Positions 1 to 16,435 of a stretch of DNA of 32,000 bases are shown in pieces; the first letter of the stretch is position 1, and each line of letters begins with the position of its first letter. Made by a program: the position numbers and the translations under genes. This DNA is from Prochlorococcus sp. MIT 0801 (GTDB lineage: Bacteria > Cyanobacteriota > Cyanobacteriia > PCC-6307 > Cyanobiaceae): positions 1,200,001 to 1,232,000 of the forward strand of contig NZ_CP007754.1 of the NCBI RefSeq assembly GCF_000757865.1. The letters are read 5' to 3'. Under the pieces are notes generated by a model. It saw only the letters and a program-made list of their open reading frames with translations, was not told where the DNA came from and searched no databases.

Positions 1-1194
1 CTCAAGTAAATGATCAATTGTTGGTGCAAGACCATTTGTTCCACCTGCAACGCTACCTATTCCACTTGTGTTGAGAATTCCTCTAGGTTGATTAGATGAT
101 CCTGTTCCTGTAATAGCAGCTAAATCAATTGCCTCTGCAATAACAGCTAGGAAATCACTTCTTACTAAACCCTCTATCTCTGGTGTTGCCTGTAGATCCA
201 TTAAATGACTGAATTTGCTATATGCACCAATGGTTTTGGGTGTCATTGCAATACTGCCTAAAGCTCCAGTTGACTCAGTAATTGAGTCAGAATTGTCTGC
301 ACCAATCCAATAGGCACTGGCTGATCCACTACGAGTAGGAATATCGACATTGCCCACTAATGATGGAAGCATTGTTGCTCCAAGTTCAGCTACAGCAAGG
401 CTGTTTCTGAGACTATCTACAAATCGATCTGCAAGATGTTCAGTCGCAATCAGATTGCCACCAGAAGCAGCAGTGCCAGCCACATAAGCCCTTGTAGACC
501 AACCGTTAGAAGGGACGAAGAAGCCTTGAGTTCTTTTGCCATTAACTCTTTCAAGTTCTGTATTTATTTCTAACTCTCTTCCAGATAAACCTCTGCCAGA
601 TGCGATACCTTTTGCAGCTTGAATAATAGAGAAATTATCTGATTCTCTTGCAAACTCATCTGGAATAGATGTGTTGATTGGTTCGTAGTTTGAAACTGGA
701 GTTGTTGTCATTTGATTAGCAGGAATTGATGTGGAACGATTAACGCCAATAGATGGATCAGCAGGGATTGAAACGATGCTCAACTCAACTGGTTGCCATG
801 AAATAGCTCTTGTTATTTCTTCGTCTTGCTCTACTTGATTGACTTGATATCCAACAGAAATATTTTCCAGAATATTATTTTCAACATCTTTTCTAATCTC
901 TAATGCTCTTGGATTAGTCGCCCATTTAATAGTGGCTTTGCCTCTCTTGTCTTCGATCCAAGCTTTGGTGACTTTGCCCAAAACTTGGTTGGGATCATGG
1001 TTGAACAATAGTGGAGCTGCACCTGTATTTAGACGAGTTAAATCAACAGATTCCTCATCATGGTCGAGTACTTCCTCTCCAAAATATCTTTCTACTGGTT
1101 GCTCACTACTAAATGAAAAAGTGAGATTATCCCGTTCTGTTTGAGCATCCATGGGAAGAAATCTCCTTTTGATTTCAACGGTTTTTGTAGTCAT
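1..1194 (-). CDS. HK97-type prohead serine protease fused to an HK97-family major capsid protein (partial; the C-terminus lies left of the window)
   Basis: Absent from the ORF track because it runs off the window. My reverse-complement translation of 1194->1 is open for 398 codons; 1-300 and 1100-1194 were re-checked codon by codon. N-terminal ~150 aa: MTTKTVEIKRRFLPMDAQTERDNLTFSFSSEQPVERYFG..LLFNHDPNQVLGKV..ENISVGYQV..VELSIVSIPADPS. This is a protease S78/U35-like pattern, with His in LFNHD and Ser in ISVGY. From about aa 190: FSIIQAAKGIASGRGLSGRELEINTELERVNGKRTQGFFVP..AYWIGADNSDSITESTGALGSIAMTPKTIGAYSKFSHLMDLQATPEIEGLVRSDFLAVIAEAIDLAAITGTGSSNQPRGILN, a typical HK97 capsid pattern. A GAGGAAAGGA SD-like purine run lies just upstream of ATG 1194. 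An alternative in-frame ATG is at 1152. Confidence 0.8.
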   Translation of the reverse strand, partial: MTTKTVEIKRRFLPMDAQTERDNLTFSFSSEQPVERYFGEEVLDHDEESVDLTRLNTGAAPLLFNHDPNQVLGKVTKAWIEDKRGKATIKWATNPRALEIRKDVENNILENISVGYQVNQVEQDEEITRAISWQPVELSIVSIPADPSIGVNRSTSIPANQMTTTPVSNYEPINTSIPDEFARESDNFSIIQAAKGIASGRGLSGRELEINTELERVNGKRTQGFFVPSNGWSTRAYVAGTAASGGNLIATEHLADRFVDSLRNSLAVAELGATMLPSLVGNVDIPTRSGSASAYWIGADNSDSITESTGALGSIAMTPKTIGAYSKFSHLMDLQATPEIEGLVRSDFLAVIAEAIDLAAITGTGSSNQPRGILNTSGIGSVAGGTNGLAPTIDHLLE

Positions 1195-1309
1195 TCCTTT
1201 CCTCTTTTTGTAATTGCAGATAACGTCTTCTCATTGGTGAAGTAAGAGCATCATCTAGGACGTGTTTGCACACTCTTGGTGTGTCGTCATCAACTAAAAG
1301 CTGAGTCAT
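1175..1309 (-). CDS. Hypothetical 44-aa protein, translationally coupled to the capsid gene
   Basis: ATG at 1309, TGA at 1177-1175. Translation: MTQLLVDDDTPRVCKHVLDDALTSPMRRRYLQLQKEERNDYKNR. It overlaps the capsid-fusion start by 20 nt (AATGAC arrangement). It is below the 60-aa track cut-off and I recognise no family. Confidence 0.3.
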   Translation of the reverse strand: MTQLLVDDDTPRVCKHVLDDALTSPMRRRYLQLQKEERNDYKNR

Positions 1310-1419
1310 AAAATATTGCGAATAATATATTTTATCTGTAAAAACTATTGGTATAGCTGTTGTTTTGGTGGGTAAATGAAATTAAAAACTAAATAGTATT
1401 ATATGCCAACTAATAACTC

Positions 1420-1680
1420 TTAATTAATGTTAAAACGACTAAAAATGTCTTAAAACAGCTTAAATACATATTTCAATTTCGATACATAATTAATGCTGTC
1501 TCGGTGCCTCAGGTGTCTCGGCATTTTCTATACCTTTCCCAGTATTGTTATCTATCTATAAATTACTACCTTCAACTTTATTATCTGAGACACTGAGGCG
1601 GAAGGGCTAAAGCCCAACCACCAGAACAGGTTTACCCCGCCTCGGAAGAAGCCAAATCTACTGAGGCTTCTGAGGCAGAC
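1420..1680. repeat. Iteron / inverted-repeat cluster next to an AT-rich tract; candidate replication origin of the element
   Basis: TTAAAAC(G/A)(A/G)CT at 1430-1440 and 1450-1460. TGTCTCGG at 1497-1504 and 1514-1521. Inverted repeat GCCTCAGGTGTCTC (1506-1519) / GAGACACTGAGGC (1587-1599). CTGAGGC at 1593-1599, 1661-1667 and 1670-1676; variant GCCTCGG at 1639-1645. The cluster lies immediately 3' of the VirE-type replication gene. Confidence 0.35.
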
Positions 1681-2936
1681 TTTCTCCATAGTCTTGGTTG
1701 CTTGACTCCATTAATTCGTTTTTGATTTTTATCTTGGACGAAACCTAATTCTCTTAGAGCGTTACCAGCTTCCTTACAATCGTGAGCTGTTATACGACCA
1801 CGATCTCTGCAACCACTTAAGTGGAGAGCTGTTTCTGCAGAGAATCCATCTGATCCTTGCTTATTTACCCACTCATACAAGCTTGAATAAAAAGGATGCT
1901 CAGCTTCAAAGTCACTATTATTCAACTCTGATTGAGCATGTTCTTCAGGAGACAGATAACACTTGTAGCCATTTAGATAAGCGAGGTGAGCAGCTTTCCA
2001 AATTCGATCACGATCTTGTTCTATTTTTTCAAGATTAATCTTTTGGTTTGGAAGGCTGATGATATTGAATCGTCTATTACCAGTTGGATCAACGAGAAAA
2101 TCCAATCGGTTGCATGTGCCTACAAGGATGCTGGGCCTTGGGAAAAGTTGAACATTTCTTCCATATGGAACTCTGAATGTATCTGAGGAACTACTAAGTA
2201 AGCCTTTTAAGCTACCCGCATCTTTTTTATTGGTGAGGTGATCTAGTTCTTGAATTTCATGAACCCATCCTCGATGAAGTTGCAGGTAAGCATCCTTCCC
2301 CTCACCAATAGTGGTATCAGAGAACCAATCTTCACCAACAAGAGTTTTAAAACAAGCAGATTTGTTAAGACCTTGCGGACCCTGAAGTATCAGTGCGGTA
2401 TCGAATTTAATTCCAGGTTTAAAAACTCTTGAAACTGCTCCTACCAAACAATTGGCCAACATTCTGTTGTACAAAGATTTGCTTTTGTGATTTTTATCTA
2501 TTGCCAAATACTCTTCAGCAAGAGTATTAATGTCCGCTTCAAATAGGTGATTGTTAGCTAATAAATCAAGAAGGTATTTTTTTATTGGATGATATGGATT
2601 TTTTTGACAGGCAACAATAAAAGCATCGACAGCGGCTTCACTGGTAATTTTAAAACCACGATCAGACAGATGTGTTGATAATTTATCGCTGAATACTGGT
2701 TCTATTCTCTGTCCATCAAGTTCTGGCTCCATTGATAATTCATTCCATGCCAGCCTCGCTCCAAAGTGCTTATTGAGAAGAGTACAAAAATCACCAGCGT
2801 GTAACTTTCTTCTTTTTCCCAAAGATATCCAACCCCACATCCAACCAACAATTGGATTAGTTGAATATGTTGGTCTATTTGGGTCAGGGAAAATCTCTGA
2901 CTCTTCTTGTCCAAAGACTTGAATTTCTTCAATCAT
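1632..2936 (-). CDS. VirE-family / D5-N-like P-loop replication NTPase (SF3-helicase-like) of a mobile element
   Basis: 434-aa ORF. Walker-A-like LILQGPQGLNKS, Walker-B-like GWVHEIQELD, then RVPYGRNVQLFPRPSILVGTCNRLDFLVDPTGNRRF. This pattern is typical of VirE (PF05272-type) proteins of phages and satellites. I saw no toprim or AEP primase motifs in the N-terminal ~170 aa. Confidence 0.75.
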   Translation of the reverse strand: MIEEIQVFGQEESEIFPDPNRPTYSTNPIVGWMWGWISLGKRRKLHAGDFCTLLNKHFGARLAWNELSMEPELDGQRIEPVFSDKLSTHLSDRGFKITSEAAVDAFIVACQKNPYHPIKKYLLDLLANNHLFEADINTLAEEYLAIDKNHKSKSLYNRMLANCLVGAVSRVFKPGIKFDTALILQGPQGLNKSACFKTLVGEDWFSDTTIGEGKDAYLQLHRGWVHEIQELDHLTNKKDAGSLKGLLSSSSDTFRVPYGRNVQLFPRPSILVGTCNRLDFLVDPTGNRRFNIISLPNQKINLEKIEQDRDRIWKAAHLAYLNGYKCYLSPEEHAQSELNNSDFEAEHPFYSSLYEWVNKQGSDGFSAETALHLSGCRDRGRITAHDCKEAGNALRELGFVQDKNQKRINGVKQPRLWRKSASEASVDLASSEAG

Positions 2937-2938
2937 TT

Positions 2939-3289
2939 TTACAACCCCACTGCTTCAATTCGATCAATTACGTCACTAAGATTTTTTGCATATTGCTCGT
3001 GTATTCGGTGCTGTTCAAAAGTGATCTTGATTAACTCTTTCTTTCTGTTGAGGTTGGCTTCGGCTAGAGCTGTATAACCAGTTTGTAATTCTTGAATTTG
3101 TGAAACTAGCGAATAATTCTGAGCGGTTGTCTCGGCTAAATGCTCAATAACGAAATTGAAATCAGCTTTGCTCCACTTTTTCATTAAGTAATTTTTTAAA
3201 TCCTCAACAGTCAGATTGGTTAGGATTGGTGCAGGGTATTCGGACTTCTCGTTTTCTTGTGACGAGGGGCCTTTTTTTTGTGATGTCAT
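2939..3289 (-). CDS. Hypothetical coiled-coil protein of the element (116 aa from ATG 3289; 118 aa from TTG 3295)
   Basis: The ORF is packed between the HTH gene (stop 3292-3294) and the VirE gene (start 2936), with 2-nt gaps on both sides. The sequence is heptad-like and Q/E/L-rich. No family recognised. Confidence 0.55.
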   Translation of the reverse strand: MTSQKKGPSSQENEKSEYPAPILTNLTVEDLKNYLMKKWSKADFNFVIEHLAETTAQNYSLVSQIQELQTGYTALAEANLNRKKELIKITFEQHRIHEQYAKNLSDVIDRIEAVGL

Positions 3290-3291
3290 TT

Positions 3292-3603
3292 TCAAGCACC
3301 CATTTTTTGATAGGTGGCTATCCCTTCGGCTGCTGTAAGAGGAGCCTCTTCAGTAATTTTTGTTTGCTCAATTTGCCAATTTCTAATTTCGTCAACATTG
3401 AACAAAACAGTTGAAGCTTTTTTGCCAGTGCTATACAACCAATGCTTGCCAGCTTCTAATTCACAAGTATTTTTGAGGCTCCACAAAGTTGCCTCAGACA
3501 TTCCCAGCATTTTTGATGCTTGAGATTTTCCAAACCAAGAAATCACTATTAAATAAGTAGTACCGATTATTTGAGACCCGCCCTTTTTCCTCCGTGGAGC
3601 CAA
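3292..3603 (-). CDS. Small HTH DNA-binding protein, excisionase / AlpA-like
   Basis: 103 aa with a TTG start; there is no in-frame ATG upstream of the HTH. ..SQASKMLGMSEATLWSLKN..GKHW..VLFNVDEIRNW resembles MerR-superfamily excisionase/AlpA regulators. It is the first well-supported gene of the leftward operon next to the tRNA. Confidence 0.55.
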   Translation of the reverse strand: MAPRRKKGGSQIIGTTYLIVISWFGKSQASKMLGMSEATLWSLKNTCELEAGKHWLYSTGKKASTVLFNVDEIRNWQIEQTKITEEAPLTAAEGIATYQKMGA

Positions 3604-3640
3604 ATCTAATTAGATCTGGAAGTCTCTCTTCTTTTTAAAA

Positions 3641-3832
3641 TCATTTGGTCAATCCAGCTTCTGGGGCTAATCCGACACCTAATCCAGAAACACGAAAGTC
3701 AGTTACCTTCACTTGGTTCACAGGCAGAACTTCCGCTTCTCCTGATCTTTTGTTTTTGCTTGGGAAGAGAGTGAACTCCTTTTGATACCCAAACGTAGGG
3801 GTGCTTGAAATTAGAAATCTAATCTTGGCCAA
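3641..3832 (-). CDS. Doubtful 63-aa ORF between the HTH gene and tRNA-Pro
   Basis: TTG start, no SD, no recognisable motif. It is co-directional with the element operon. It may simply be regulatory or att-arm DNA. Confidence 0.15.
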   Translation of the reverse strand: MAKIRFLISSTPTFGYQKEFTLFPSKNKRSGEAEVLPVNQVKVTDFRVSGLGVGLAPEAGLTK

Positions 3833-3953
3833 AAGCTAGCTTGATAAATTCCAATCTGCAACAACATATTTAAAAGTCTTGGGAAAAACTAGAAGAATTC
3901 AGGCTGTCACTAGACGCTTTTCCCAATTTTTTCCCAAACTACAATTTCCCATT

Positions 3954-3980
3954 AAAAAAGACAGGCTGGGAAACCTGTCT
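3954..3980 (-). terminator. Rho-independent terminator of tRNA-Pro
   Basis: On the minus strand: AGACAGG-tttcccag-CCTGTCT followed by TTTTTT (plus-strand A-run 3954-3959). It begins 9 nt after the tRNA 3' end. Confidence 0.6.
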
Positions 3981-3988
3981 ATGACTGA

Positions 3989-4062
3989 TCGGGGCGACAG
4001 GATTCGAACCTGCGACCTAGTGCTCCCAAAGCACCCGCGCTACCAAGCTGCGCCACGCCCCG
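3989..4062 (-). tRNA. tRNA-Pro (anticodon UGG)
   Basis: The reverse complement folds by hand into a cloverleaf: CGGGGCG TG GCGC AGCTTGGTA GCGC G GGTGC TTTGGGA GCACT AGGTC GCAGG TTCGAAT CCTGT CGCCCCG A. Length 74 nt, GTTCGAAT T-loop, no encoded CCA. Confidence 0.93.
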
Positions 4063-4614: not shown

Positions 4615-4638
4615 AAAAAAGCCCTGCTACTACAGGGC
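4615..4638 (-). terminator. Terminator-like hairpin downstream of the orphan tRNA-Pro 5' half
   Basis: On the minus strand: GCCCTG-tagtag-CAGGGC followed by TTTTTT. It is preceded on the plus strand by CATTAAAAAAG, the same context as the genuine tRNA terminator at 3951-3960. Confidence 0.45.
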
Positions 4639-4658
4639 TGTTGCTTGTCTAAAATTCC

Positions 4659-4699
4659 GCTCCCAAAGCACCCGCTCTACCGAGCTGCTCCACGCCCTG
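4659..4699 (-). pseudogene. tRNA-Pro 5'-half fragment (anticodon loop to 5' end); a copy of the upstream flank continues to ~4775
   Basis: gctcccaaagcacccgCtctaccGagctgcTccacgcccTg aligns to 4022-4062 of the intact gene with 4 mismatches. The following ~75 nt (4700-4775) align to the flank at 4063-4140, for example gatagctgc and ataaattc. Confidence 0.8.
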
Positions 4700-4909
4700 T
4701 CAATTAAGATCGTAGCCACTGATAGCTGCCAATAGAAAATAAATTCTCAAAAATTTTGACTAATAATAATGAATTACAATTTTGCAATGATTTTTTGACC
4801 TTATTTTTCAAGCTTTCCTACAAAACAATATTTATAAACATCTAAAAAAATATAGTTTTTTTTTAGATTCCAAGAACTATTTTTTGAGGAATACTAAGAC
4901 AAATTCTGA

Positions 4910-5899
4910 TCAATTACATATAGGGACTTCTGCAATACCCCAATTGTAAGGCCAATAAGCATCATCTTCTAATCCATAATATTCTTTAGGGTTGACTGGT
5001 TCTTGCCACCATCCATTTAATCCCCCATGTCTTTCTGCATGACCAGAGGGATCCTTCATTAACAAATGGAAACCTCCTGCTTGTCCACTCTGATGATATT
5101 GATTATTCCAGCCACCTTGCCCTGCCCCATAGGGGGATTCAAAATCTTCATCTAAATCATTACCATTAGCCCAATTAAAATCACCTTCAGAATCTGAACT
5201 CAATCCAATCCAAGCTCCTGCACGAAGTCCATCTCCCCAGTTAGGATCAGGCGAAGACAACTTATCTGTATAAGTATCTATTAAATACTGATTCTCATCT
5301 GTGTTATTTGGAGTCGTTAAAAAGCCACCTAATTTCTGGGCGTTATCATTAGCCTCGGTCCATGATGAACCTTTGATTAAAACATAAGCCGAACACCCTC
5401 TTTTAGATAAAGAGTCGGGCATTATGACATCAGCATTTTTGATTATCAATCCTTCAAGAGACTGGTCATCAGAAGAACCACAAATTGCATTTAAACAAGC
5501 ATTAAAGTTTATTCCACTTAACCCTTTAAATGAATATGACAAAAGATTTGTACTAGCCTCAAGAATAAATGAAGGAAAAACCGATGAATTGCTTGGGGTA
5601 GCGCTAATTAATCCATTTGATTGATTACCACTACAACTATTTGAACCATCAGATTGGATTTGATAAGAATTTAAATTGCTTGAAGTAAATGTACCTGCGT
5701 TACCCGTATCAATTCTATTAATTTCACATTCAGTTTGAATTTGTTTCATTGCTGCCAATGCAGCAGTCGCCTGAGCTTTTCTCTGGAAGCAGCTAAACGT
5801 GGGGATTGCAATCGCAGATAGGACTGCCAGTACAGAAACAACAACTACTAGTTCAATCAAAGAGAATCCTTCTTCTTTTAAGTGATTCTTTAAAACCAT
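4910..5899 (-). CDS. Type IV prepilin-like N-terminus fused to a C-type-lectin-like C-terminal domain (paralog 1)
   Basis: 329-aa ORF. Prepilin signal KEEG|FSLIELVVVVSVLAVLSAIAIP (Gly-1, Phe+1, Glu+5). C-terminal ~170 aa: GCSAYVLIKGSSWTEANDNAQKLGGFLTTPNNTDENQYLI..GAWIGLSSDSEGDFNWANG..VPICN. This has CTLD hallmarks: W-x-EA, GG-x-L, WIGL and a terminal Cys. Confidence 0.7.
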   Translation of the reverse strand: MVLKNHLKEEGFSLIELVVVVSVLAVLSAIAIPTFSCFQRKAQATAALAAMKQIQTECEINRIDTGNAGTFTSSNLNSYQIQSDGSNSCSGNQSNGLISATPSNSSVFPSFILEASTNLLSYSFKGLSGINFNACLNAICGSSDDQSLEGLIIKNADVIMPDSLSKRGCSAYVLIKGSSWTEANDNAQKLGGFLTTPNNTDENQYLIDTYTDKLSSPDPNWGDGLRAGAWIGLSSDSEGDFNWANGNDLDEDFESPYGAGQGGWNNQYHQSGQAGGFHLLMKDPSGHAERHGGLNGWWQEPVNPKEYYGLEDDAYWPYNWGIAEVPICN

Positions 5900-6096
5900 T
5901 GGATAATAGATCTAAGGCATTAAATGTATTGTTTTTAATTCTGGCTAAATAAAAAAATGTCGACTAACATTTATAGTATATCTATACAAAACGTGTTCTA
6001 TTTATAGCTTTACAAACTAGAGACTCTGGCCTCTATCAACTATCAAGAAATCCTTGGGCACTAAAAACAGTGAATAAGTTAATAAATCCTTTATTT

Positions 6097-6139
6097 GACA
6101 GATAGTGATTTCGAACTGCGACCTAGCGTTCCCTATGCA
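6097..6139 (-). pseudogene. tRNA-Pro 3'-half fragment (acceptor/T-arm to anticodon loop)
   Basis: gacag[atagt]gatttcgaactgcgacctagcgttccctatgca aligns to 3996-4033 of the intact gene. The T-arm GATTCGAAC..GCGACCTAG is well kept. It sits 16 nt below the stop of the second pilin-lectin gene. Confidence 0.7.
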
Positions 6140-6154
6140 AATCAAATATGGCTT

Positions 6155-7090
6155 TTAATTACATGCTAGCTCTACCATTCCTTGTCCATCATGTCTTGTA
6201 GCAGGGAAGTCATTCCATGTGATGTCTCCGTTTTGTTGTATTACAAGTGAGCTGAAATTACCATCCCAGTCCATTCCTTCACCTATGCCCCAGAAGCCAG
6301 GGCGATAAGAAGAACTTTCCCCTGAGACCCAACCGTCTGAATGACCTGCAGCATTTTGAAGCTTCTCGCCTGTATCACCGCTTCTTGTGAGACCAATATG
6401 TATATTTCTAACCCCCCATGAATCCTGTGGGATATTTTGCCCAATCTCTAGATAGGTTTCAGCTATCCATCTATCCTCTGCCTCATCATTAATTGTGACC
6501 AAATTACCTCCAATTGCTACTGCATTCGCCTGAGCATCACTCCACTTTGGTCCGTCAACTAAGACATAGCATGAATTATTTCTCTTGAAAAAAGTGTCTT
6601 TTTGTACAAATTCATAGGATTCTAATTCAGTCTGAAATTCCGTTGTACTCCCAGCATTTCCATTAAAACAAATCATACTTAAACATTTCGAGAAATCAGT
6701 TCCTGTCTCCCCTTTAAAGCTATATGTTAGTTGACTATTGTTAATAGCCAATATGAAAGTAGGTAATAAGTTTGTATCGTTTGGTATTGCACTAATCAGT
6801 CCGGTTTCCGAGACACCTCCGCAACTGTTACTGCTAGTTCCATCTGATTGAATCTGATAAGAATTTAAATTGCTTGAAGTAAACGTACCTTCGATACCCG
6901 TATCAGCTTTATTAATTTCACACTCAGTTTGAATTTGTTTAATCGCTGCTAAAGCAGCAGTTGCTTTTGACTTACGCTGAAAACAATTGAAAGTAGGTAC
7001 TGCAATTGCAGATAATACAGAAAGCACAGAAACTACAATTACTAGCTCAATTAATGAAAAGCCTTTTTCTGATTCATTTTTCATAATCAT
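6155..7090 (-). CDS. Type IV prepilin-like N-terminus fused to a C-type-lectin-like C-terminal domain (paralog 2)
   Basis: 311-aa ORF. SEKG|FSLIELVIVVSVLSVLSAIAVP. C-terminal: SCYVLVDGPKWSDAQANAVAIGGNLVTINDEAEDRWI..IHIGLTR..GDITWNDFPATRHDGQGMVELACN, including a CTLD-like WND motif and terminal Cys. The first ~145 aa are clearly homologous to paralog 1; the lectin-like part has diverged. Confidence 0.7.
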   Translation of the reverse strand: MIMKNESEKGFSLIELVIVVSVLSVLSAIAVPTFNCFQRKSKATAALAAIKQIQTECEINKADTGIEGTFTSSNLNSYQIQSDGTSSNSCGGVSETGLISAIPNDTNLLPTFILAINNSQLTYSFKGETGTDFSKCLSMICFNGNAGSTTEFQTELESYEFVQKDTFFKRNNSCYVLVDGPKWSDAQANAVAIGGNLVTINDEAEDRWIAETYLEIGQNIPQDSWGVRNIHIGLTRSGDTGEKLQNAAGHSDGWVSGESSSYRPGFWGIGEGMDWDGNFSSLVIQQNGDITWNDFPATRHDGQGMVELACN

Positions 7091-7290
7091 TAGGACTAGG
7101 AAATAATCAAACTTATTTATTAACTTTAATTCTGGCTAAAAATTTAAATAATTAAACTATTTAAGCTAGAAATTATATAATCATTAAATTATTGTCACCT
7201 AAAAGCCTAAAAACTTGGCAAAATTATTTTAAGTTTTTACTTATGAAGTTATTTGGGAATCAATCTGTCGAATTTATCAAAACCGAATGA

Positions 7291-7362
7291 TCAGAAGGAC
7301 AAGATTAAAACATGCGGTCTAGCTCTCCAAAAGCATCCGCGCTGCCAAGCTGCGCAACGCCT
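7291..7362 (-). pseudogene. Full-length but decayed tRNA-Pro copy
   Basis: tcagaaggacaagattaaaacatgcggtctagctctccaaaagcatccgcgctgccaagctgcgcaacgcc aligns end-to-end with 3989-4060. The acceptor and T-arm pairing are destroyed. The left flank (atgatc) also resembles the genuine flank (ctgatc). Confidence 0.7.
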
Positions 7363-7585
7363 AACTTACGAAATTGATCTTAAGGCTTCAATGATGCTTA
7401 AGTACAAGAATTAAAAAACACAACCAAATACACCCGTGTAAAAAGCATTAGTCAGGTTCTCTTCTTGGTAAGTTTGAGCATTGCAGTTAGAAAAATCAGA
7501 AAAAACCTGACACATTTAAATTTAGCCCAAAAAACTATGAACTCGTGGTAATTCCTCCCAATAGCTAAGATTAAAACTGTTAACA

Positions 7586-7756
7586 GTGAATCCTTTGGCC
7601 CCTCATTTAGATCACCCTTTCTTAGTATTTACTTGGCACTTACTTGTAGGGTACCTTCTCACTGTTAGTTGTGACTGGAACTGGATTCCTTTGAATAACG
7701 AGGAGAAAAAGAGGGGTCCATCTCTAGATCAAATTAGAGGTAAAATATTTAGCTGA
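7586..7756 (+). CDS. Possible 56-aa single-TM protein or gene remnant (GTG start)
   Basis: (M)NPLAPHLDHPFLVFTWHLLVGYLLTVSCDWNWIPLNNEEKKRGPSLDQIRGKIFS. It is open from the TAG at 7565-7567 to the TGA at 7754-7756 and has no ATG. It lies in a locally GC-richer patch in an AT-rich context. Below the track cut-off. Confidence 0.3.
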   Translation: MNPLAPHLDHPFLVFTWHLLVGYLLTVSCDWNWIPLNNEEKKRGPSLDQIRGKIFS

Positions 7757-8076
7757 AAAGTGAACAAATAAAAAACTTTTACTCGAGAAACAGATGTATT
7801 AATTAAAGATTAGTTTAATAGTTTTTAGGAAGTTGATAAATAAAATTGCTCAAAAGGTAGGAAAAGCTCATATCTCCTTTAATTGTAATAGCATTAATAT
7901 AAGTAAATGAAGTTATTTATTTGATTTTAAAAATGTTTTTTCTCTAAAAATATTTAATAGGATAATTTTATAGATTCATTAAAACACATTTAAAAAATTA
8001 GTCATTTTTCTCTCCTTTTTTAATCACAGAAAAGGGAAAATCCTTTCATAATAAATGTATCTATTTAAGTTAGTCA

Positions 8077-8475
8077 GTGAAACTGATACCAAATTTTGCT
8101 GAATTGCTGCATGACGTAAAATTACCAACGGCTGAAAAATGCTTTTTTATTGAAGAAGGCGATGAAAAGTACATCGAGAAATTGATAAGTAAAGGAGAAC
8201 TCACATGCGACTTAGAAAAACTCTTCAATTGGATCAACCTAGAGTACAAACTGAAGAAAAAAAATTTAAATAACGAAGAAAGACAACTTGCTGAAGAAGT
8301 AAAAAAGAGATTCCCTGTGGACAAATGGCGTGTTATAAAAATCTTTAGTGATCATCAACAAAAATATCGATACTACAAAAAGGCAATTGAAGACGTGAAA
8401 AGACGAACAACTCCTCGTATGAACGAACAAGCAATTATGACTATTTTCAGCCCAGGCCGGGGTATAAATACCTAG
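8077..8475 (+). CDS. Hypothetical 132-aa K/E-rich protein (GTG start)
   Basis: Track ORF. The opposite-strand ORF 8070..8324 is an S/F-rich low-complexity mirror image. No family recognised. Confidence 0.45.
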   Translation: MKLIPNFAELLHDVKLPTAEKCFFIEEGDEKYIEKLISKGELTCDLEKLFNWINLEYKLKKKNLNNEERQLAEEVKKRFPVDKWRVIKIFSDHQQKYRYYKKAIEDVKRRTTPRMNEQAIMTIFSPGRGINT

Positions 8476-8517
8476 GTATGGTATAATTACTTATGAGTTA
8501 TTAAACATTTGAATTTC

Positions 8518-8610
8518 ATGATTAATAAGTATCCCTTGATTCCTTTCCTTATTTTCGCCGGAGCACTAGTAAGCACAGCAACAATTGGTTTGCCAGTATT
8601 TGCTGGATAA
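8518..8610 (+). CDS. Possible 30-aa hydrophobic peptide
   Basis: MINKYPLIPFLIFAGALVSTATIGLPVFAG. An extended -10-like TGGTATAAT ends at 8487, about 30 nt upstream of the ATG. Confidence 0.25.
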   Translation: MINKYPLIPFLIFAGALVSTATIGLPVFAG

Positions 8611-8988
8611 TTACAACAAAACCAAAAATCTCTCCAAACAAAAGATATTGCCCTTTAACTTAAATAAAGAAAAAAAAAGAAAATAGTATTCAACTTTATT
8701 TTAATTCAATACGAATATAGTTAAATAAATTTTTTTTATTTAACTTTAATATTATTTCTCTAAAATTGCATACCAATAATTAAATAGAAAATACGAAGAG
8801 TATAAAAATATCCCTAGGTAAACCCAATTAAGCCACTCAGGCCGCTTATTACCGGTAGCCATTAAATCTAATTAATATACTATCAATATATTATACTTAT
8901 ACATATAAGGTTTGACTCTTAGCTGCTAAAGCTTTACGTTAATTCTAAAAGTTAAAAACCAAAAGTAATTACATAAGGGGAGGTATTT

Positions 8989-9489
8989 ATGAAAAAACAA
9001 TATAAGTTTCTCCAAAAGCACACGAATGAATTCATTACCACTTTCAAAAGTTTAAGAGGAAACATATGGTCATTAAACTTTCCAGTTTTTCTTTTTGATA
9101 GAGATTGGTTCAGGCTCAAAAAAATTACCCTTTATGATTTAGCCAAAGAACTTAAACCAGACAATTCACAGGAAGCACCTGAAATAATTCAATATCAACA
9201 ATTACTCAATGATGGTCACGATCATTTACTTGCAATTCAAGAATGTTGGAACGAATTTGGAATTGAAGATTTTCATCGATCCCTTAGAAACTCTTCTGAG
9301 TGGAAATTAAAAGGAAATAATGGATGGACATTCAAAAAATACGCTGAACTTATAACTGGATATAGAAATATTATTGAAAGCAAAGAAATTCTTATACCAA
9401 TAATTATTTTAGGCAGGAATAAAAATGAAGATCACCAACTTGAATGGATAAGCGAAGAATTCATTTCTGAACTTACATTCGCAGATTAA
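8989..9489 (+). CDS. Hypothetical 166-aa soluble protein
   Basis: The strongest SD in the island (AAGGGGAGG, 6 nt before the ATG). Non-repetitive composition. No family recognised. Confidence 0.65.
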   Translation: MKKQYKFLQKHTNEFITTFKSLRGNIWSLNFPVFLFDRDWFRLKKITLYDLAKELKPDNSQEAPEIIQYQQLLNDGHDHLLAIQECWNEFGIEDFHRSLRNSSEWKLKGNNGWTFKKYAELITGYRNIIESKEILIPIIILGRNKNEDHQLEWISEEFISELTFAD

Positions 9490-9519
9490 AAATATAGAAA
9501 AGCTTTATATAAAGAAGTT

Positions 9520-9696
9520 TCAAGCAATAGTTAAATCATCCGATCTCGTTCCCCACTCTGTATCTTCCAAAAGATCAGAGTAGCAAGAGGCATTTACCAA
9601 GTTATATTTTTGAAATTTCCAATCTGAATCTTCAAGGTAATCTGAGTACTCAAATGTTTTCGCAAGAAGAGAGAATTCCTTACTAAAAGGGCACAT
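9520..9696 (-). CDS. Possible 58-aa acidic protein
   Basis: MCPFSKEFSLLAKTFEYSDYLEDSDWKFQKYNLVNASCYSDLLEDTEWGTRSDDLTIA. ATG 9696, TGA 9522-9520, with an upstream in-frame TGA at 9717-9715. Convergent with 8989..9489. Confidence 0.3.
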   Translation of the reverse strand: MCPFSKEFSLLAKTFEYSDYLEDSDWKFQKYNLVNASCYSDLLEDTEWGTRSDDLTIA

Positions 9697-9867
9697 GGAG
9701 ATTATGCAATTTTTTCAATCATTCACACTACCAGGGCTAAAAGCAACTGAATATTATAATTCCTAAATATTTAGATAGAATAATTAAGTAGCAAAACAAG
9801 GAATTACATCAATTTAAATGAAAGCCTGTAATAGAATATTTAACGATAAAGACCTCTTTAAAAAACA

Positions 9868-10158
9868 ATGGGTTACATCAAAAAGGAAAAGCAAGGAGAA
9901 TTTGATTTCGAGAAGCTCCCTGAGGGTATATATTTCTTTTCAGGCAAAGAGGGATTCGTAAAAGTAGAAGTAAATAAAGATGGACATCAGTCTTGGGATT
10001 TACAAAATTGGTTTGACTCTTTAGATCCAGACAAAGATGAGGCGCAACATCAAAAAACAATTCAAGACATCAAAAGAAGATTAAACGCAGATACTGGAAT
10101 TATTAATCCCTCTGAAAAACAGGAGAAGAAAAAATTTTTAAACCTCTTTAGCAAATAA
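9868..10158 (+). CDS. Hypothetical 96-aa protein
   Basis: Track ORF with an ATG start and a K/E/D-rich, non-membrane sequence. No family recognised. Confidence 0.5.
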   Translation: MGYIKKEKQGEFDFEKLPEGIYFFSGKEGFVKVEVNKDGHQSWDLQNWFDSLDPDKDEAQHQKTIQDIKRRLNADTGIINPSEKQEKKKFLNLFSK

Positions 10159-10171
10159 GCAAACTCTAAAC

Positions 10172-10513
10172 TTATTCAAGAAATAGAAATATTCGATTTA
10201 CCGCTAATCCAATTAGAAAATATCTTAACAATGTACACCAAGCATATAAATATACACATTGATAATCTGTCTTTGAGACTTCTTCACCTTTGTGAATTAA
10301 TAAAAGATTAAATCTATAATTTGAATTATTTTTAACAAGAAGAACGACACATAAAACTAATGATACCAAAACATTCTCATTCAAAAATAAAATGAAGGCA
10401 ATAAAAAAAGATATATTTGAAATCAAGTCAATTAATGGAATAAATGTAGCAGGCAAAACCAGAAGATTAGAAAAAATATATATAACTCTGCTATAATTTA
10501 GCCAAGAAGACAT
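10172..10513 (-). CDS. Hypothetical 113-aa multi-pass membrane protein
   Basis: Track ORF with 3-4 hydrophobic segments, in very AT-rich DNA. Confidence 0.4.
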   Translation of the reverse strand: MSSWLNYSRVIYIFSNLLVLPATFIPLIDLISNISFFIAFILFLNENVLVSLVLCVVLLVKNNSNYRFNLLLIHKGEEVSKTDYQCVYLYAWCTLLRYFLIGLAVNRIFLFLE

Positions 10514-10770
10514 TTTCTAAGATAAATATATATCTATCTTTAGCAAATAATTAAGCTAATGGCAATTTTTCAAGTCAAAACTCATTAAAGGGTAAATGAA
10601 TAAGCTATAAATAATCTAACCTATTAAGAGAAGGCAGAAGTCAATAATAGGAAATACAAGGTATGTACAGAAATATAAGGTATTTGTCTAACATGTCTTT
10701 ATATGTATTTTTTTTCATAAATCTAAAAAAGCCTTTAAAGAAGTTAATATTAAAGTAAAGAACTAATAAA

Positions 10771-11016
10771 ATGGAAATATTTCTGCTTCTTTCTTTAATC
10801 CTTTTAACGGTTTTTTTTGTTTTCAAAAAAGTTTTTTATTCGGCAAAGAGAAATCTTTTCAAGAATCAAGCGGAATGGTTTAGCAAAGATATAAAAATAA
10901 AATACAGTAAATCAAAAGAAATTTCAGCATTAAAAAAGCATGATAACTATCTAAAAATAATTGCTGACGAGTCAAAATGCTTTTTAGACGAACAATCAAG
11001 TCAAGATTATGAGTGA
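10771..11016 (+). CDS. Hypothetical 81-aa protein with an N-terminal TM helix
   Basis: MEIFLLLSLILLTVFFVF followed by a K-rich tail. Confidence 0.4.
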   Translation: MEIFLLLSLILLTVFFVFKKVFYSAKRNLFKNQAEWFSKDIKIKYSKSKEISALKKHDNYLKIIADESKCFLDEQSSQDYE

Positions 11017-11067
11017 AACCTATTAAATTAAACTATAAAAAAACAGAAACTCTCAATTTAATTAAAA

Positions 11068-11304
11068 ATGTACTATCAATTATTATTCATTAATAATATA
11101 TATTTCCTTTTAATAAAGAATATTTTACTTGATATGACGATAAATAATCCTATTTTCATTTTTGCACTCATAATAGTTATTTGGTTCATTCCAGGAATTT
11201 TAGTTAGAAGGATTAATGAATTAAAACAGATAAAGAAAACTAAAAAGAGACAAGCTGATGCTATTAATAAACTATATCCAAATCCAAAAGATTCTTCTAA
11301 TTAA
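11068..11304 (+). CDS. Hypothetical small membrane protein (78 aa; 56 aa if it starts at ATG 11134)
   Basis: TM helix IFIFALIIVIWFIPGILV followed by a basic tail, RRINELKQIKKTKKRQ. Confidence 0.4.
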   Translation: MYYQLLFINNIYFLLIKNILLDMTINNPIFIFALIIVIWFIPGILVRRINELKQIKKTKKRQADAINKLYPNPKDSSN

Positions 11305-11492
11305 CTAAAAAATGATATTGTATTTATTAAATTTTAGACTATAAATAAACAGATTTTTAGAATATTAGATCTTTGTGTAAAGTGACTTATGTTGTTTTAA
11401 TATTAAAGCAAAGTCATCAAATATATATCTTTTAATATTAGAAGTATTTTTTAGATATAATGAGTTAATCTAATAAGAAAGAGATTCTGTTG

Positions 11493-11768
11493 ATGATGGT
11501 AAGGAAGCTAGGACAATATGGTGGCTACTTACTTAGTGGAATATTAATAGCATGGCTAATAAATCCAATAGCAGCGCTAGCTTTTCTTGAGATTTTTCTA
11601 AAAATGACGTTATTAATATCTATTCCTATCTCAGGAGCTTATTTGTTAGAAAAGATTATCCTTTTAAAGCATCAAAAAGCATGGAATATAATTCTTCCTA
11701 CATGGATAATATTAAGTATCTATTTCAGTTTCAGGTTAGTTAAATTAATAGAAAGCCTTATTGATTAA
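11493..11768 (+). CDS. Hypothetical 91-aa three-TM membrane protein
   Basis: ATG 11493 (the track start, TTG 11490, is one codon upstream). TATAAT at 11456-11461. Confidence 0.45.
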   Translation: MMVRKLGQYGGYLLSGILIAWLINPIAALAFLEIFLKMTLLISIPISGAYLLEKIILLKHQKAWNIILPTWIILSIYFSFRLVKLIESLID

Positions 11769-11996
11769 ATATTTATATCTTTTTTTAAGATTATTGAGGA
11801 ATTATGTTTTATGAATAGATAGTTAATTTATTTGGCGATTATAAATTTATTCTAATCTAATCAGACAATTACGAATTCAAAAAATTATTTTCATAAAATC
11901 AAGAATAGTACCTAATTTTATTCATTCATAAAATCCATAGCATTTCTAGAAGTTAAAATATCCGACCTTGTCGAAAGAATTCATGCTTTATGGATA

Positions 11997-12272
11997 ATGA
12001 TTAATACAGTAAAAAATTTGAACAACATGGTGCTTCCTTTTCTTACTGCAATATTTTTCCCTGATTATGGTTATCAGGGTATTCCCTGGGATTTGTACTT
12101 ACTTCATTTTTTCTTCTTTGCGATTGTAATTCCATTTCATGTAATTATTTTTGCTGCCCGTAGCGCTCAGACCGTCAAGCCAAACGGAGTAAAGGACTGG
12201 CTTAAGTGGGAATCCAAGGCAACTAAAGACGACTTGGATTCAATGTTTCCAAACGATTTCCCTACCGCTTAA
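11997..12272 (+). CDS. Hypothetical 91-aa membrane protein
   Basis: Two hydrophobic segments followed by a charged C-terminal tail. Confidence 0.45.
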   Translation: MINTVKNLNNMVLPFLTAIFFPDYGYQGIPWDLYLLHFFFFAIVIPFHVIIFAARSAQTVKPNGVKDWLKWESKATKDDLDSMFPNDFPTA

Positions 12273-12376
12273 CTCTCTAAAAAGCCTTTTAAAAATGTCC
12301 GAATTTATCAAGGTGCTACAACTTCATTAAATTTGGGCAATTTTAGGTTTATATATATACCTGCATCTAAAAAAAA

Positions 12377-12520
12377 ATGCTTCATTTGCCATTCTTAACC
12401 TTTGCTTTAGGAGGGGGAAGCCTCTCAGCAACAATTGTCGGTGTTGGATCCCTAGTTCTCTTTGGACTTGTTGGTGTAATTGCTGGGCCAAATCTTTCTA
12501 AATTTGATTCTGAAGCTTAG
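12377..12520 (+). CDS. Possible 47-aa Gly-rich hydrophobic peptide
   Basis: MLHLPFLTFALGGGSLSATIVGVGSLVLFGLVGVIAGPNLSKFDSEA. Below the track cut-off. Confidence 0.3.
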   Translation: MLHLPFLTFALGGGSLSATIVGVGSLVLFGLVGVIAGPNLSKFDSEA

Positions 12521-12953
12521 GGAGATAGCCATTATTTCAAAAAGCTTTTGCTAAGCTTCCCAAATAGACATATTTTTAGATTTTAAAAATCTATCTAGGG
12601 AATCCAATTCTTTAACAGAACTTTCTTCCATCAAGAGTTTTAACCTTGGTGGAATTTTTTTATATACATTTGCCAAAAAATACCTCAAAATCCATTACAA
12701 AATCTATGAAAATATAGATAAAATGGGACCTCACAGAGACAATCAAAATAGTAAGATAGATTAGTAAAACTTATAGCTTCTATGATCGTCTATTATGAGG
12801 CTTGATTAGTTGCAGCTCTGACTTATAAATTATTAATAAATTAATTTACAAAGTTTAATTAAATGGAAATGAATCCTTATAAGCCTTTGATACAAGCTTT
12901 TAAAAAAATCTACAAAAACTTCAAGTAATAGATCAGGAAAATTTAATGTGCAG

Positions 12954-14480: not shown

Positions 14481-14534
14481 TAAATTTTTCAATTTCAAAA
14501 CTACGCTTCTACCATCCTGCCTTATTAGACATGC

Positions 14535-14879: not shown

Positions 14880-15176
14880 CTATTTTTCTTTTATTAAACT
14901 GACAAACTCTTCAGTAGTTAAAGCAGGCTTATACTCCCAAATCATTCCAAATTTATCTCTCCAGGATCCAAAAACCTTAAATAAAATTGATGCACTTGAA
15001 GCTCTGCAAATGATTACTCCTGTTCCGTCTTGTGGCGTGTGTGCCCAAGTAATTCTCTCATAGCCATCAATAAGATCTTCAGATTTTCCACTTTCAACAT
15101 AATCTACAAATGCTTCCGATGAATAATTTTGATCCTCAGAAGATTCGAATTTCCAAGTAACTATATACAGCTGCAT
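14880..15176 (-). CDS. Conserved-looking hypothetical 98-aa soluble protein
   Basis: Clean ATG ORF of balanced composition (MQLYIVTWKFESS..). I cannot name the family with confidence. Confidence 0.6.
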   Translation of the reverse strand: MQLYIVTWKFESSEDQNYSSEAFVDYVESGKSEDLIDGYERITWAHTPQDGTGVIICRASSASILFKVFGSWRDKFGMIWEYKPALTTEEFVSLIKEK

Positions 15177-16363: not shown

Positions 16364-16435
16364 TGGGTCGCCTGAGATTCGAACTCAGGACCAGCCGGTT
16401 AAAAGCCGGATGCTCTACCACTGAGCTAGCGACCC
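16364..16435 (-). tRNA. tRNA-Lys (anticodon UUU)
   Basis: Reverse complement: GGGTCGC TA GCTC AGTGGTA GAGC A TCCGG CTTTTAA CCGGC TGGTC CTGAG TTCGAAT CTCAG GCGACCC A. Length 72 nt, good cloverleaf. Confidence 0.93.

Follow-up and report, generated by a model that had tools for sequence, protein, structure and literature searches.

The closest described counterparts of the element analysed here are the PICI-like (MCP-type) tycheposons of the YR_P group, which occur in the same genus and have their site next to tRNA-Pro(tgg). Hackl et al. (bioRxiv 10.1101/2020.12.28.424599; Cell 2023) listed Pro_tgg among the tycheposon target tRNAs, reported that PICI-like tycheposons carry MCP or terS, and gave as hallmarks hel_VirE, xis, reg and "MCP_IRVE-HK97 = MCP + caudovirus serine prohead protease", that is, a hel_VirE helicase, reg/xis HTH genes and a major capsid protein (MCP) fused to an S78 prohead protease. 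The AlpA-type PICIs of Gram-negative bacteria and the capsid-forming PICIs (cf-PICIs) are likewise small tRNA-associated islands with the gene order AlpA-like regulator, replication, packaging, and their dependence on a helper phage is presumably common to our element. Unlike them, the element lacks terS, portal, connector and capsid-size-redirecting genes and has a single MCP-protease fusion; in addition, the integrases of the tycheposon family form a clade separate from those of PICIs (Hackl et al.). The VEIMEs (Eppley et al. 2022, PMC9618062) are also marine satellites, found in virus particles; some are integrated in Prochlorococcus, and some of their recombinases are related to tycheposon recombinases. 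They were reported without a major capsid gene, whereas the family studied here has one. Finally, Synechococcus phage S-LBS1 (MG271909.1), a cyanobacterial siphovirus, provides a full-length, single-piece match to the protease-MCP fusion (34.5% identity, 3e-88), but its 34.6-kb phage genome has terS, terL, portal and tail genes surrounding the capsid gene. As the identity is only about 35%, we regard S-LBS1 as an evolutionary cousin and not as an identified helper.

We analysed a 32,000-nt stretch (hereafter, the window) of DNA from Prochlorococcus sp. MIT 0801, a strain of the LLI clade to which the window was assigned by exact protein matches. The left end of the window very probably holds the tRNA-proximal 4 kb of an MCP-type PICI-like tycheposon, inserted by site-specific recombination in the 3' 45 nt of tRNA-Pro(tgg). 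A satellite or tycheposon had already been suggested in a preliminary description of this DNA, and our analysis supports that suggestion: the tRNA target, the VirE helicase, the AlpA/Xis-like regulators and the MCP-S78 fusion all figure among the listed hallmarks, and relatives with tRNA-Pro attachment sites exist. The same description considered such an element notable in this host. Since the kind was described in 2020 and 2023 from a genome set that includes MIT 0801 (the strain appears in the genome table of Hackl et al.), this no longer holds, and the element is an ordinary member of an already described kind.

The tRNA-Pro(tgg) gene, called by both ARAGORN and Rfam, occupies positions 3989-4062 on the minus strand, so its 3' end points towards the gene train. 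Its 3' 45 nt (3989-4033) are the attachment core used across the element family, and the same 45 nt were found again as partial copies around the L052 element and as the attP of the circular L009 element. Directly after the tRNA, a terminator scan detected a terminator-like hairpin on the minus strand (3959-3980; GACAGG-TTTCCCAG-CCTGTC followed by a T-run), which is part of the element-side att arm; in the L009 attP, and in copies a and c of L052, the tRNA-Pro half-copy is likewise followed by a hairpin of this sort.

All plausible genes between 3832 and 1 lie on the minus strand and are closely spaced. The stop of the first conserved gene, encoding an HTH protein, ends at 3292, leaving a 2-nt gap before the next ATG at 3289 (an alternative TTG at 3295 would instead create a 4-nt overlap); the stop of that second gene ends at 2939, again 2 nt from the helicase ATG at 2936; and a 44-aa ORF ends at 1175, overlapping by 20 nt the capsid gene that starts with an ATG at 1194. 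On recomputation, the ORF coordinates, strand, gaps and overlap of the preliminary description proved exact, and its tRNA, helicase and capsid identities held as well; what did not stand were the iterons it placed in the intergenic region and, more doubtfully, a 63-aa ORF, both discussed below.

The first conserved gene (3292-3603, minus strand, 103 aa from a TTG start) had been called an excisionase-like HTH. Alone, it has a weak HTH_17 match (E=0.035). It is homologous to the first genes of the relatives L001 (56%), L052 (27%) and L009 (30%), and the evidence is carried by this family: HTH_17 is matched by three of the four members, related first genes match the excisionase/regulator families PHROG 66/2907, and the family profile matches the AlpA structure 8c3t (E=0.011). 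The earlier call is thus borne out, and the gene probably encodes an AlpA/Xis-like regulator. Next but one lies the replication module, a 434-aa VapE/VirE-type helicase (AIQ97596; 1632-2936, minus strand), for which the VirE-type assignment is confirmed by the VapE-like_dom family (PF05272, formerly VirE; E=2e-61) and by PHROG 256, DNA helicase (4e-61). Among phage proteins it is closest to the primase-polymerase of S-LBS1 (36% identity, 8e-53).

Downstream, an intergenic region (1310-1631) separates the helicase from the 44-aa ORF. Its half at 1310-1500 is AT-rich (23% GC), as the preliminary description had noted, but the count and length of direct repeats in 1310-1631 did not exceed those of dinucleotide shuffles (p about 0.2-0.4), so its iterons are at chance level. 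The region is possibly a promoter or an origin; the equivalent region of L001 contains three 27-nt repeats. The 44-aa ORF itself (AIQ97595; 1175-1309, minus strand) has a 46% identical counterpart in the same place over the capsid start of L001, and L004 and L056 have similar ORFs of 50/51 aa across their capsid starts. It has no amino-acid change relative to three of four Tara variants and one relative to L003. Judged by this conservation, the small ORF reported ahead of the capsid gene is a real gene.

The last gene in the window (AIQ97594; 1-1194, minus strand) encodes the first 398 of the 533 aa of a prohead protease (S78) and HK97-fold major capsid protein fusion; the remainder lies to the left, on a contig (L005) that carries the complete gene. 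Pfam and PHROG matches confirm the earlier identification (Phage_capsid, 4e-20; Peptidase_S78, 2.6e-9; PHROG 617 major head protein, 1e-80), as does NF045541, a model of the protease/MCP fusion. The protease catalytic pair, His66 and Ser113, is invariant in 31 homologues, and the mature capsid chain of roseophage R4C (8gta) starts at residue 245. Identity to even the nearest phage capsids does not exceed 37%. Copies 96-99% identical to the element occur in several Tara samples, and, judging from comparison with these variants, the visible genes are intact and under purifying selection (pN/pS 0.11-0.22; 0.11 for VapE and 0.13-0.22 for the capsid fusion).

Complete relatives show what the whole element looks like. 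Like YR_P tycheposons, they are about 8-9.5 kb long (8.3-9.5 kb among the complete ones), have a roughly 45-nt partial tRNA duplication and include viral-fraction contigs. They possess att sequences as well as a recombinase. In L052, two 45-nt tRNA-Pro half-copies enclose an element of 8.26 kb, which is oriented to the tRNA as in MIT 0801 and has the order regulator, helicase, MCP, HTH_17, ligase and tyrosine recombinase. The same order is seen in L001, whose end is formed by a ligase and an integrase. Excised or circular forms, which the preliminary description had proposed to look for, are represented by two of the complete relatives: L009, an IMG/VR sequence whose 99-nt terminal repeat closes it into a circle of 8,626 bp, and L056, which is circular at 9,486 bp and contains VapE, a small ORF and MCP. 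The attP of L009 is the 45-nt 3' half of tRNA-Pro with 3 mismatches, and it adjoins a 413-aa ORF that has no Pfam or PHROG match of its own and is 30% identical to the L001 tyrosine recombinase. These elements share homologues of the first gene, the 44-aa ORF, MCP and the xis gene. The ligase is not universal, being missing from L009. Portal, terminase, tail and lysis genes are absent from every relative examined, the capsid fusion being the sole virion gene.

The far end of the MIT 0801 copy differs. Contig L005, 100% identical to window positions 1-2107, extends the sequence leftwards by 1.5 kb; it completes the capsid gene and continues with a second HTH_17 (xis-like) gene and, 12 nt on, a convergent host-type gene for a 740-aa DUF4214 protein. 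The integrase expected left of the window is therefore not at the position it has in the relatives. Unlike in YR_P tycheposons, DUF4214 abuts the xis-like gene, and neither a recombinase nor a distal tRNA-Pro repeat is seen in the window or the 1.5-kb extension. The backbone is shared with the closest relative, L002, up to a point about 0.9 kb beyond the left edge of the window, which is exactly the DUF4214 stop codon; this implies that the recombinase/att end was deleted or displaced further left; we slightly favour deletion, and the integrase end may thus have been lost.

Whether this copy is a decayed, immobile remnant, deprived of its ligase/recombinase end and distal att when the tRNA-Pro island underwent an internal rearrangement, and hence unable to excise alone, is in our judgement evenly balanced. 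Behind the xis-like gene, L001 and L052 have a ligase and then a tyrosine recombinase (L052 also the tRNA half-copy after these), where here DUF4214 begins after 12 nt. The junction on L005 has no spacer: L002 homology ends at 3009, and homology to L048, an unrelated DUF4214 locus, starts at 3002. The DUF4214 family is also found in non-element contexts, no tRNA-Pro fragment occurs in the extension or elsewhere in the window, and MIT 0801 contributes no protein to the 120 top-ranking homologues of the L002 ligase. Degenerate and integrase-less partial tycheposons were reported by Hackl et al., and lone ligase remnants exist, e.g. L060. Against decay speak the intact genes under purifying selection and the near-identical Tara copies, as well as the dispensability of the ligase; moreover, the stretch downstream of xis in L004 and L009 is a variable accessory slot occupied by opposite-strand genes, so DUF4214 could be cargo with the recombinase beyond it. 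This question bears on the state of the MIT 0801 copy and not on its kind.

As to kind, it is very unlikely that the family consists of minimal autonomous HK97-fold "mini-viruses" forming portal-less or tail-less particles free of a helper. The complete circular relatives of 8.6-9.5 kb, with the capsid gene as their only virion gene, would fit such a virus, but we know of no mechanism by which an HK97 shell alone packages or delivers dsDNA, and the integrative, regulator-controlled architecture is satellite-like. A 2025 preprint describes hundreds of HK97-encoding genomes below 11.6 kb without portal and tail genes, which favours the autonomous reading; against it, such elements were recovered by Hackl et al. 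from the tailed-phage fraction.

Still less probable is the end of a complete or defective tailed prophage with its other structural genes left of the window, an alternative raised in the preliminary description that we reject. Among true phages a protease-capsid fusion is nothing unusual as a head gene: it follows terS, terL and portal in S-LBS1, which is also the best phage match of VapE. In phages, however, portal and terminase precede the capsid gene, and here a helicase does; left of the capsid gene, where a portal and terminase had been anticipated, the 1.5 kb on L005 holds only the xis-like and DUF4214 genes and no portal, terminase or tail genes, and the complete relatives, too, lack these and lysis genes. 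The comparison with cf-PICIs, which would encode a full head module and take only tails from the helper, is equally improbable despite the element's own capsid protein and maturation protease, AlpA-like regulator, replication gene and tRNA integration, because cf-PICIs carry portal, head-tail connector and small terminase genes on about 10-15 kb, whereas these genes are absent here and from the complete relatives, the capsid fusion is the only head gene, and the integrase clade is separate.

For the MCP-type tycheposon, a life cycle can be proposed by analogy with known satellites. The element would lie dormant; when DNA is damaged or a helper cyanophage infects the cell, the HTH regulators would turn on the operon and direct excision. 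The circle would then be replicated by VapE, for which the AT-rich region ahead of the capsid gene is a possible origin. The capsid fusion would assemble and remove its own N-terminal 244 residues by self-processing, and would build, or co-assemble into, heads needing the helper's portal, terminase and tail. The capsid gene is probably used for travel in helper-phage particles; the element would spread, and the helper's yield would fall.

The 116-aa orphan protein (AIQ97597/WP_038653390; 2939-3289, minus strand), a putative coiled-coil protein according to the preliminary description, occupies a variable accessory slot; it forms a cluster of 2, with no significant family match and no homologue in related elements or outside near-identical copies. 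The 63-aa ORF (AIQ97599; 3641-3832, minus strand, TTG start) is a doubtful gene, a singleton cluster without a Pfam or PHROG match or a homologue in related elements, and the region is more probably a 5' leader or regulatory region. Between it and the tRNA, five copies of a 7-mer cluster at 3880-3973 (TTTCCCA at 3919, 3930 and 3945; inverted TGGGAAA at 3880 and 3967), so that a 94-bp stretch contains 5 of the 12 copies present in the whole window. We infer that these are candidate arm-type binding sites for a recombinase/Xis or a regulator; in other elements this position has 2-3 short repeats particular to each, e.g. GCGGACAAA in L052.

The minus-strand gene train that begins at the 3' end of tRNA-Pro(tgg) (3989-4062, minus strand; ARAGORN and Rfam) is an element of an already known kind, an ordinary and possibly truncated member of the tycheposons. 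Every credible ORF from 3832 down to 1 lies on the minus strand, and the junctions quoted in the preliminary description (3292/3289, 2939/2936 and a 20-nt overlap at 1175-1194) are right. Domain searches bore out its VirE-type replication gene and its prohead-protease/HK97-capsid gene. The former (1632-2936, AIQ97596.1) encodes a VapE/VirE-type helicase (PF05272, 2e-61; PHROG 256, 4e-61). The latter (1-1194, the window part of a 533-aa ORF, AIQ97594) fuses an N-terminal prohead protease to an HK97-fold capsid protein within that one ORF, with matches to Peptidase_S78 (2.6e-9), Phage_capsid (4e-20), PHROG 617 (1e-80) and the NCBIfam family NF045541, "prohead protease/major capsid protein fusion". 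The term "excisionase-like HTH" is acceptable at family level for the AlpA/HTH_17-like first gene (3292-3603): its family matches PHROG 66/2907 ("excisionase / transcriptional regulator"), HTH_17 is hit by three of the four members, and the family profile matches the AlpA-family structure 8c3t (E=0.011). Of the "AT-rich iteron region" at 1310-1631, the AT-richness holds (23% GC in 1310-1500) and the iterons do not, the direct repeats being neither longer nor more numerous than in dinucleotide shuffles.

The remaining proteins of the train, of 116 aa (WP_038653390.1), 63 aa and 44 aa (AIQ97595.1, whose ORF is the one overlapped by the start of the capsid gene), had no significant match in NCBIfam, Pfam or PHROGs. 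The 63-aa ORF (3641-3832, TTG start) is an orphan, a singleton with no relatives in the related elements compared. Site counts in the promoter scan did not exceed those in shuffled sequence, and the sole convincing signal of the promoter and terminator scans was a terminator just after the tRNA. Rfam reported two tRNAs and nothing else.

Tycheposons were described across 623 Prochlorococcus genomes by Hackl et al. (bioRxiv 10.1101/2020.12.28.424599). They target seven tRNAs (Pro_tgg, Ser_tga, Ala_ggc, Thr_ggt, Arg_tct, Met_cat and tmRNA), use either a tyrosine recombinase clade (YR_P for tRNA-Pro) or large serine recombinases, and carry reg and xis genes as well as replication genes (with profiles including hel_VirE); at the distal end, ~40 bp of the tRNA is duplicated. 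YR_P is the largest group, with 261 of the 501 elements, and elements of this type are plentiful in viral-fraction metagenomes. A "PICI-like" subset carries MCP or terS, and the packaging hallmark MCP_IRVE-HK97 is a fusion of Phage_capsid and Peptidase_S78 (bioRxiv 10.1101/2020.12.28.424599). The MIT 0801 element shares with PICI-like tycheposons the tRNA-Pro(tgg) site, at whose 3' end it starts, a hel_VirE-type helicase (E=2e-61), an AlpA/HTH_17-like first gene together with a 77-aa gene after the MCP that matches HTH_17 (1.6e-4), and the MCP-S78 fusion in one ORF. The preliminary description was largely right, and its comparison with satellite-type tycheposons is supported. All features that can be tested in the window agree with the published class, so we regard the kind as already known. 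Neither a recombinase nor a distal partial tRNA, as in the published tycheposons, was seen in the visible part of the MIT 0801 copy. The genome table of the same study includes MIT 0801 itself; in the portion of the supplementary tables searched for an element entry, that row was the only one for the strain (bioRxiv 10.1101/2020.12.28.424599).

Homologues of the capsid fusion number in the thousands in marine metagenomes, many of them on contigs of 8.1-9.7 kb, and a similar capsid gene adjoins tRNA-Pro(tgg) in the MIT 1307 genome. Five related elements were compared. One of them (L052), in the Prochlorococcus SAG GCA_003216465.1, spans 8,260 bp (6227-14486), is flanked on each side by a 45-nt copy of the tRNA-Pro 3' half, and shares the orientation of the window's element relative to the tRNA. 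It encodes an AlpA/Xis-like protein of 88 aa, four small ORFs, an AAA_25 helicase, the MCP fusion and a 90-aa HTH_17 protein, and ends with a ligase and a tyrosine recombinase on the opposite strand. A 7.9-kb element on an HLI SAG contig (L001; no att found) has the same order with a VapE helicase. In IMG/VR, an 8,626-bp circle with a 99-nt terminal repeat (L009) carries regulators, helicase, MCP fusion, xis-like gene, small ORFs and a 413-aa putative tyrosine recombinase, which has no family match of its own and is 30% identical to the L001 recombinase. Beside this ORF lies an attP comprising the 45-nt tRNA-Pro 3' half (3 mismatches) and the same type of terminator hairpin. A 9,486-bp circle from ENA (L056; 55-nt terminal repeat, no att found) carries VapE, a 51-aa ORF and the MCP fusion. 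Relatives of the element thus form circles with terminal repeats in assembly, one of them catalogued in IMG/VR, and the 45-nt tRNA-Pro 3' half is the att core. The closest capsid (81% aa identity) belongs to a JGI contig (L002; 8,730 bp, completeness not established, no att found) with the order MCP fusion, xis-like gene, ligase, large serine recombinase and D5-type helicase. The recombinases accordingly include tyrosine enzymes in L001, L052 and, putatively, L009, and a large serine enzyme in L002. No other virion protein was detected in these elements by Pfam or PHROGs.

Individual genes of the train are related to their counterparts to varying degrees. Identities of the first gene are 56% to L001, 27% to L052 and 30% to L009, the VapE proteins of the window and L001 are 37% identical, and the 44-aa ORF is 46% identical to an ORF overlapping the L001 capsid start. 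The 77-aa xis-like gene shows 73% identity to L002, 45% to L009, 42% to L001 and 34% to the MIT 1307 locus (L004). A scan of genome contigs returned one distant SAG, and VapE scans of metagenome and viral sets returned one 1.6-kb fragment and two distant loci (30% identity). The SAG contig of L052 carries five copies of the 45-nt tRNA-Pro 3' half in one orientation (904-948, 6182-6226, 14487-14531, 17616-17660 and 19018-19062), which span 18 kb in which ARAGORN finds no full tRNA. They look like a tandem array from successive integrations, within which segment 6227-14486 is the single complete MCP element.

Beyond the left window edge, the element can be followed on a Logan contig (L005; 3,642 bp) that is 100% identical to window positions 1-2107 and adds 1,535 bp; its proteins are exactly AIQ97594 (capsid, 533 aa) and WP_038653384 (77 aa) of MIT 0801. 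The end of the capsid gene is followed by a terminator-like hairpin, the 77-aa xis-like HTH_17 protein and then a convergent DUF4214 gene (AIQ97592, 740 aa; L005 2988-3642, 0.9-1.5 kb beyond the left window edge), whose stop codon lies 12 nt past the xis-like gene. Homology to L002 reaches L005 position 3009, and homology to an unrelated DUF4214 locus (L048) starts at 3002 (an overlap of ~8 nt), so the element backbone directly abuts the 3' end of the DUF4214 gene, with no spacer. In L001 and L052, oriented as in the window, a ligase and a recombinase come after the xis-like gene, and in L052 the distal tRNA half-copy comes next. A site-specific recombinase is absent from the window and the 1.5-kb left extension, where the DUF4214 gene stands instead, and no second tRNA-Pro fragment occurs elsewhere in the window or in L005; the repeat whose distal copy is expected at an intact element end is TGCTTTGGGAGCACTAGGTCGCAGGTTCGAATCCTGTCGCCCCGA.

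The visible element measures ~4.9 kb, versus 8.3-9.5 kb in complete relatives. We slightly favor the reading that the MIT 0801 copy has lost its recombinase end and is a partial element; the DUF4214 gene family is common in LLI genomes outside elements. Somewhat less favored is that the DUF4214 gene is cargo and the recombinase lies farther left, a reading in line with L009 and MIT 1307, both of which have accessory genes on the other strand past xis. When the L002 ligase was used as query, no MIT 0801 protein appeared among the best 120 matches, a weak negative since it is drawn from those matches and some members of the family lack the ligase. A tycheposon-type ligase of ~245 aa, which shares 79% identity with the L002 enzyme, was found at 3148-3885 of a 20-kb contig (L060). 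It stands alone among host polysaccharide-biosynthesis genes, with no recombinase or capsid gene, and is apparently a stranded remnant.

Capsid-forming PICIs (cf-PICIs) carry a head module of their own, comprising MCP, protease, portal, head-tail connectors and small terminase, and PICIs are induced to excise, replicate and be packaged by a specific helper phage. The sole head gene here is the MCP-protease fusion. Pfam and PHROGs detected no portal, terminase or connector in the element or in the complete relatives L001, L009 and L052, and we therefore rejected a cf-PICI on the absence of portal, connector and terS genes. In tailed prophages (Caudoviricetes), the terminase, portal, tail and lysis modules are contiguous with the capsid gene; here the capsid gene lies between the helicase on one side and xis and DUF4214 on the other. 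The preliminary description had allowed for the end of a prophage, which is disposed of for the visible sequence because the left extension has no portal, terminase or tail gene. Domestication of an encapsulin or GTA-like kind is rejected as well, given that the capsid is fused to an S78 protease and that the gene lies in a mobile setting with att sites. The marine VEIMEs, in contrast, lack capsid genes (Eppley et al., PMC9618062), whereas the MIT 0801 element has one.

No close helper-phage capsid was found, the best phage capsid match being 37% identical, and there was no DNA-level similarity to any deposited phage. The best deposited-phage match for VapE (36%) is the freshwater Synechococcus siphovirus S-LBS1, which also matches the capsid fusion over its full length (34.5%, 3e-88; several non-cyanobacterial phages have slightly higher identity, up to 37%). 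The matching regions are 4621-6516 and 33085-34179 of MG271909.1. This suggests that the VapE and capsid modules come from one cyanosiphovirus-like lineage. In S-LBS1 the fusion lies within an ordinary terS-terL-portal-capsid-tail module. With identity of only ~35%, S-LBS1 is a distant cousin and not an identified helper.

The element genes are conserved and under purifying selection: against Tara Oceans variants of 96-99% identity, VapE has a pN/pS of 0.11 and the capsid gene one of 0.13-0.22, and there are no indels. Across 31 aligned capsid fusions with identities down to 52%, protease residues His66 and Ser113 never vary; in the HK97 gp4 protease their counterparts are the catalytic His and Ser. 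In roseophage R4C (PDB 8gta; PMC10276861), the mature capsid chain aligns from exactly residue 245, which suggests that the N-terminal 244 residues (protease and linker/scaffold) are cleaved off.

A life cycle may be envisaged in which DNA damage or a helper phage induces the element, AlpA/Xis-type proteins control the operon and excision, and VapE drives replication. The capsid fusion would then assemble and process itself, the helper would supply portal, terminase and tail, and the element would interfere with the helper. A bolder version, which we consider unlikely though worth stating, is that the MCP-protease fusion alone lets the satellite build a down-sized shell, for a genome of 8.3-9.5 kb, around a helper cyanophage portal. 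If true, this would be a "minimal capsid-forming satellite", much simpler than cf-PICIs and going beyond an interference factor. A 2025 preprint describes many HK97 genomes of <11.6 kb without portal and tail genes. MIT 0801 is a cultured strain, and the question of an own shell is testable in it if this copy can still be mobilized.

The locus flagged at the outset is one of few virus-related mobile elements in Prochlorococcus. Since the class and its exact hallmark set were published from a dataset including MIT 0801, the element adds an annotated example and is not a discovery. Its value lies in the MCP-type capsid, helicase and regulator set intact in a cultured strain of the LLI clade (complete genome, 1,929,203 bp), and its apparent abrupt end at the DUF4214 gene illustrates element decay or cargo capture in tRNA islands.

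Just past tRNA-Pro, the 7-mer TTTCCCA/TGGGAAA occurs five times within 94 bp (3880-3973; three direct, two inverted), out of 12 copies in the entire 32-kb window. Other elements bear two to three short repeats of their own at the equivalent position (GCGGACAAA in L052, GCGTCCA in L009). We infer that the cluster holds candidate arm-type recombinase sites or operator sites.

Several further features lie near the element. At 7000-12500, between tRNA-Pro and tRNA-Lys (16364-16435, minus), GC content falls to 23-31%, versus 35-40% around it, and there are only short orphan ORFs without Pfam matches. The stretch looks island-like; no partial tRNA-Lys repeat occurs in the window. The gene for a small DUF3303 protein (14880-15176, minus) lies between those for SulP and tRNA-Lys. 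Its domain is found again in two accessory genes, one next to tRNA-Pro in MIT 1307 (L004 13356-13670) and one within the circular 9.5-kb L056 (9065-9379). The window also encodes pdxJ (AIQ97626.1) and a pilin-like neighbor protein (AIQ97601.1); like the VapE, 44-aa and 116-aa proteins, both were identified as MIT 0801 proteins by exact sequence. On the opposite side of tRNA-Pro, and immediately adjacent to it, two tandem genes of ~320 aa (4910-5899 and 6155-7090, minus) combine an N-terminal prepilin-type cleavage/methylation signal with large divergent C-terminal domains, and the 90% cluster of the first has two members.
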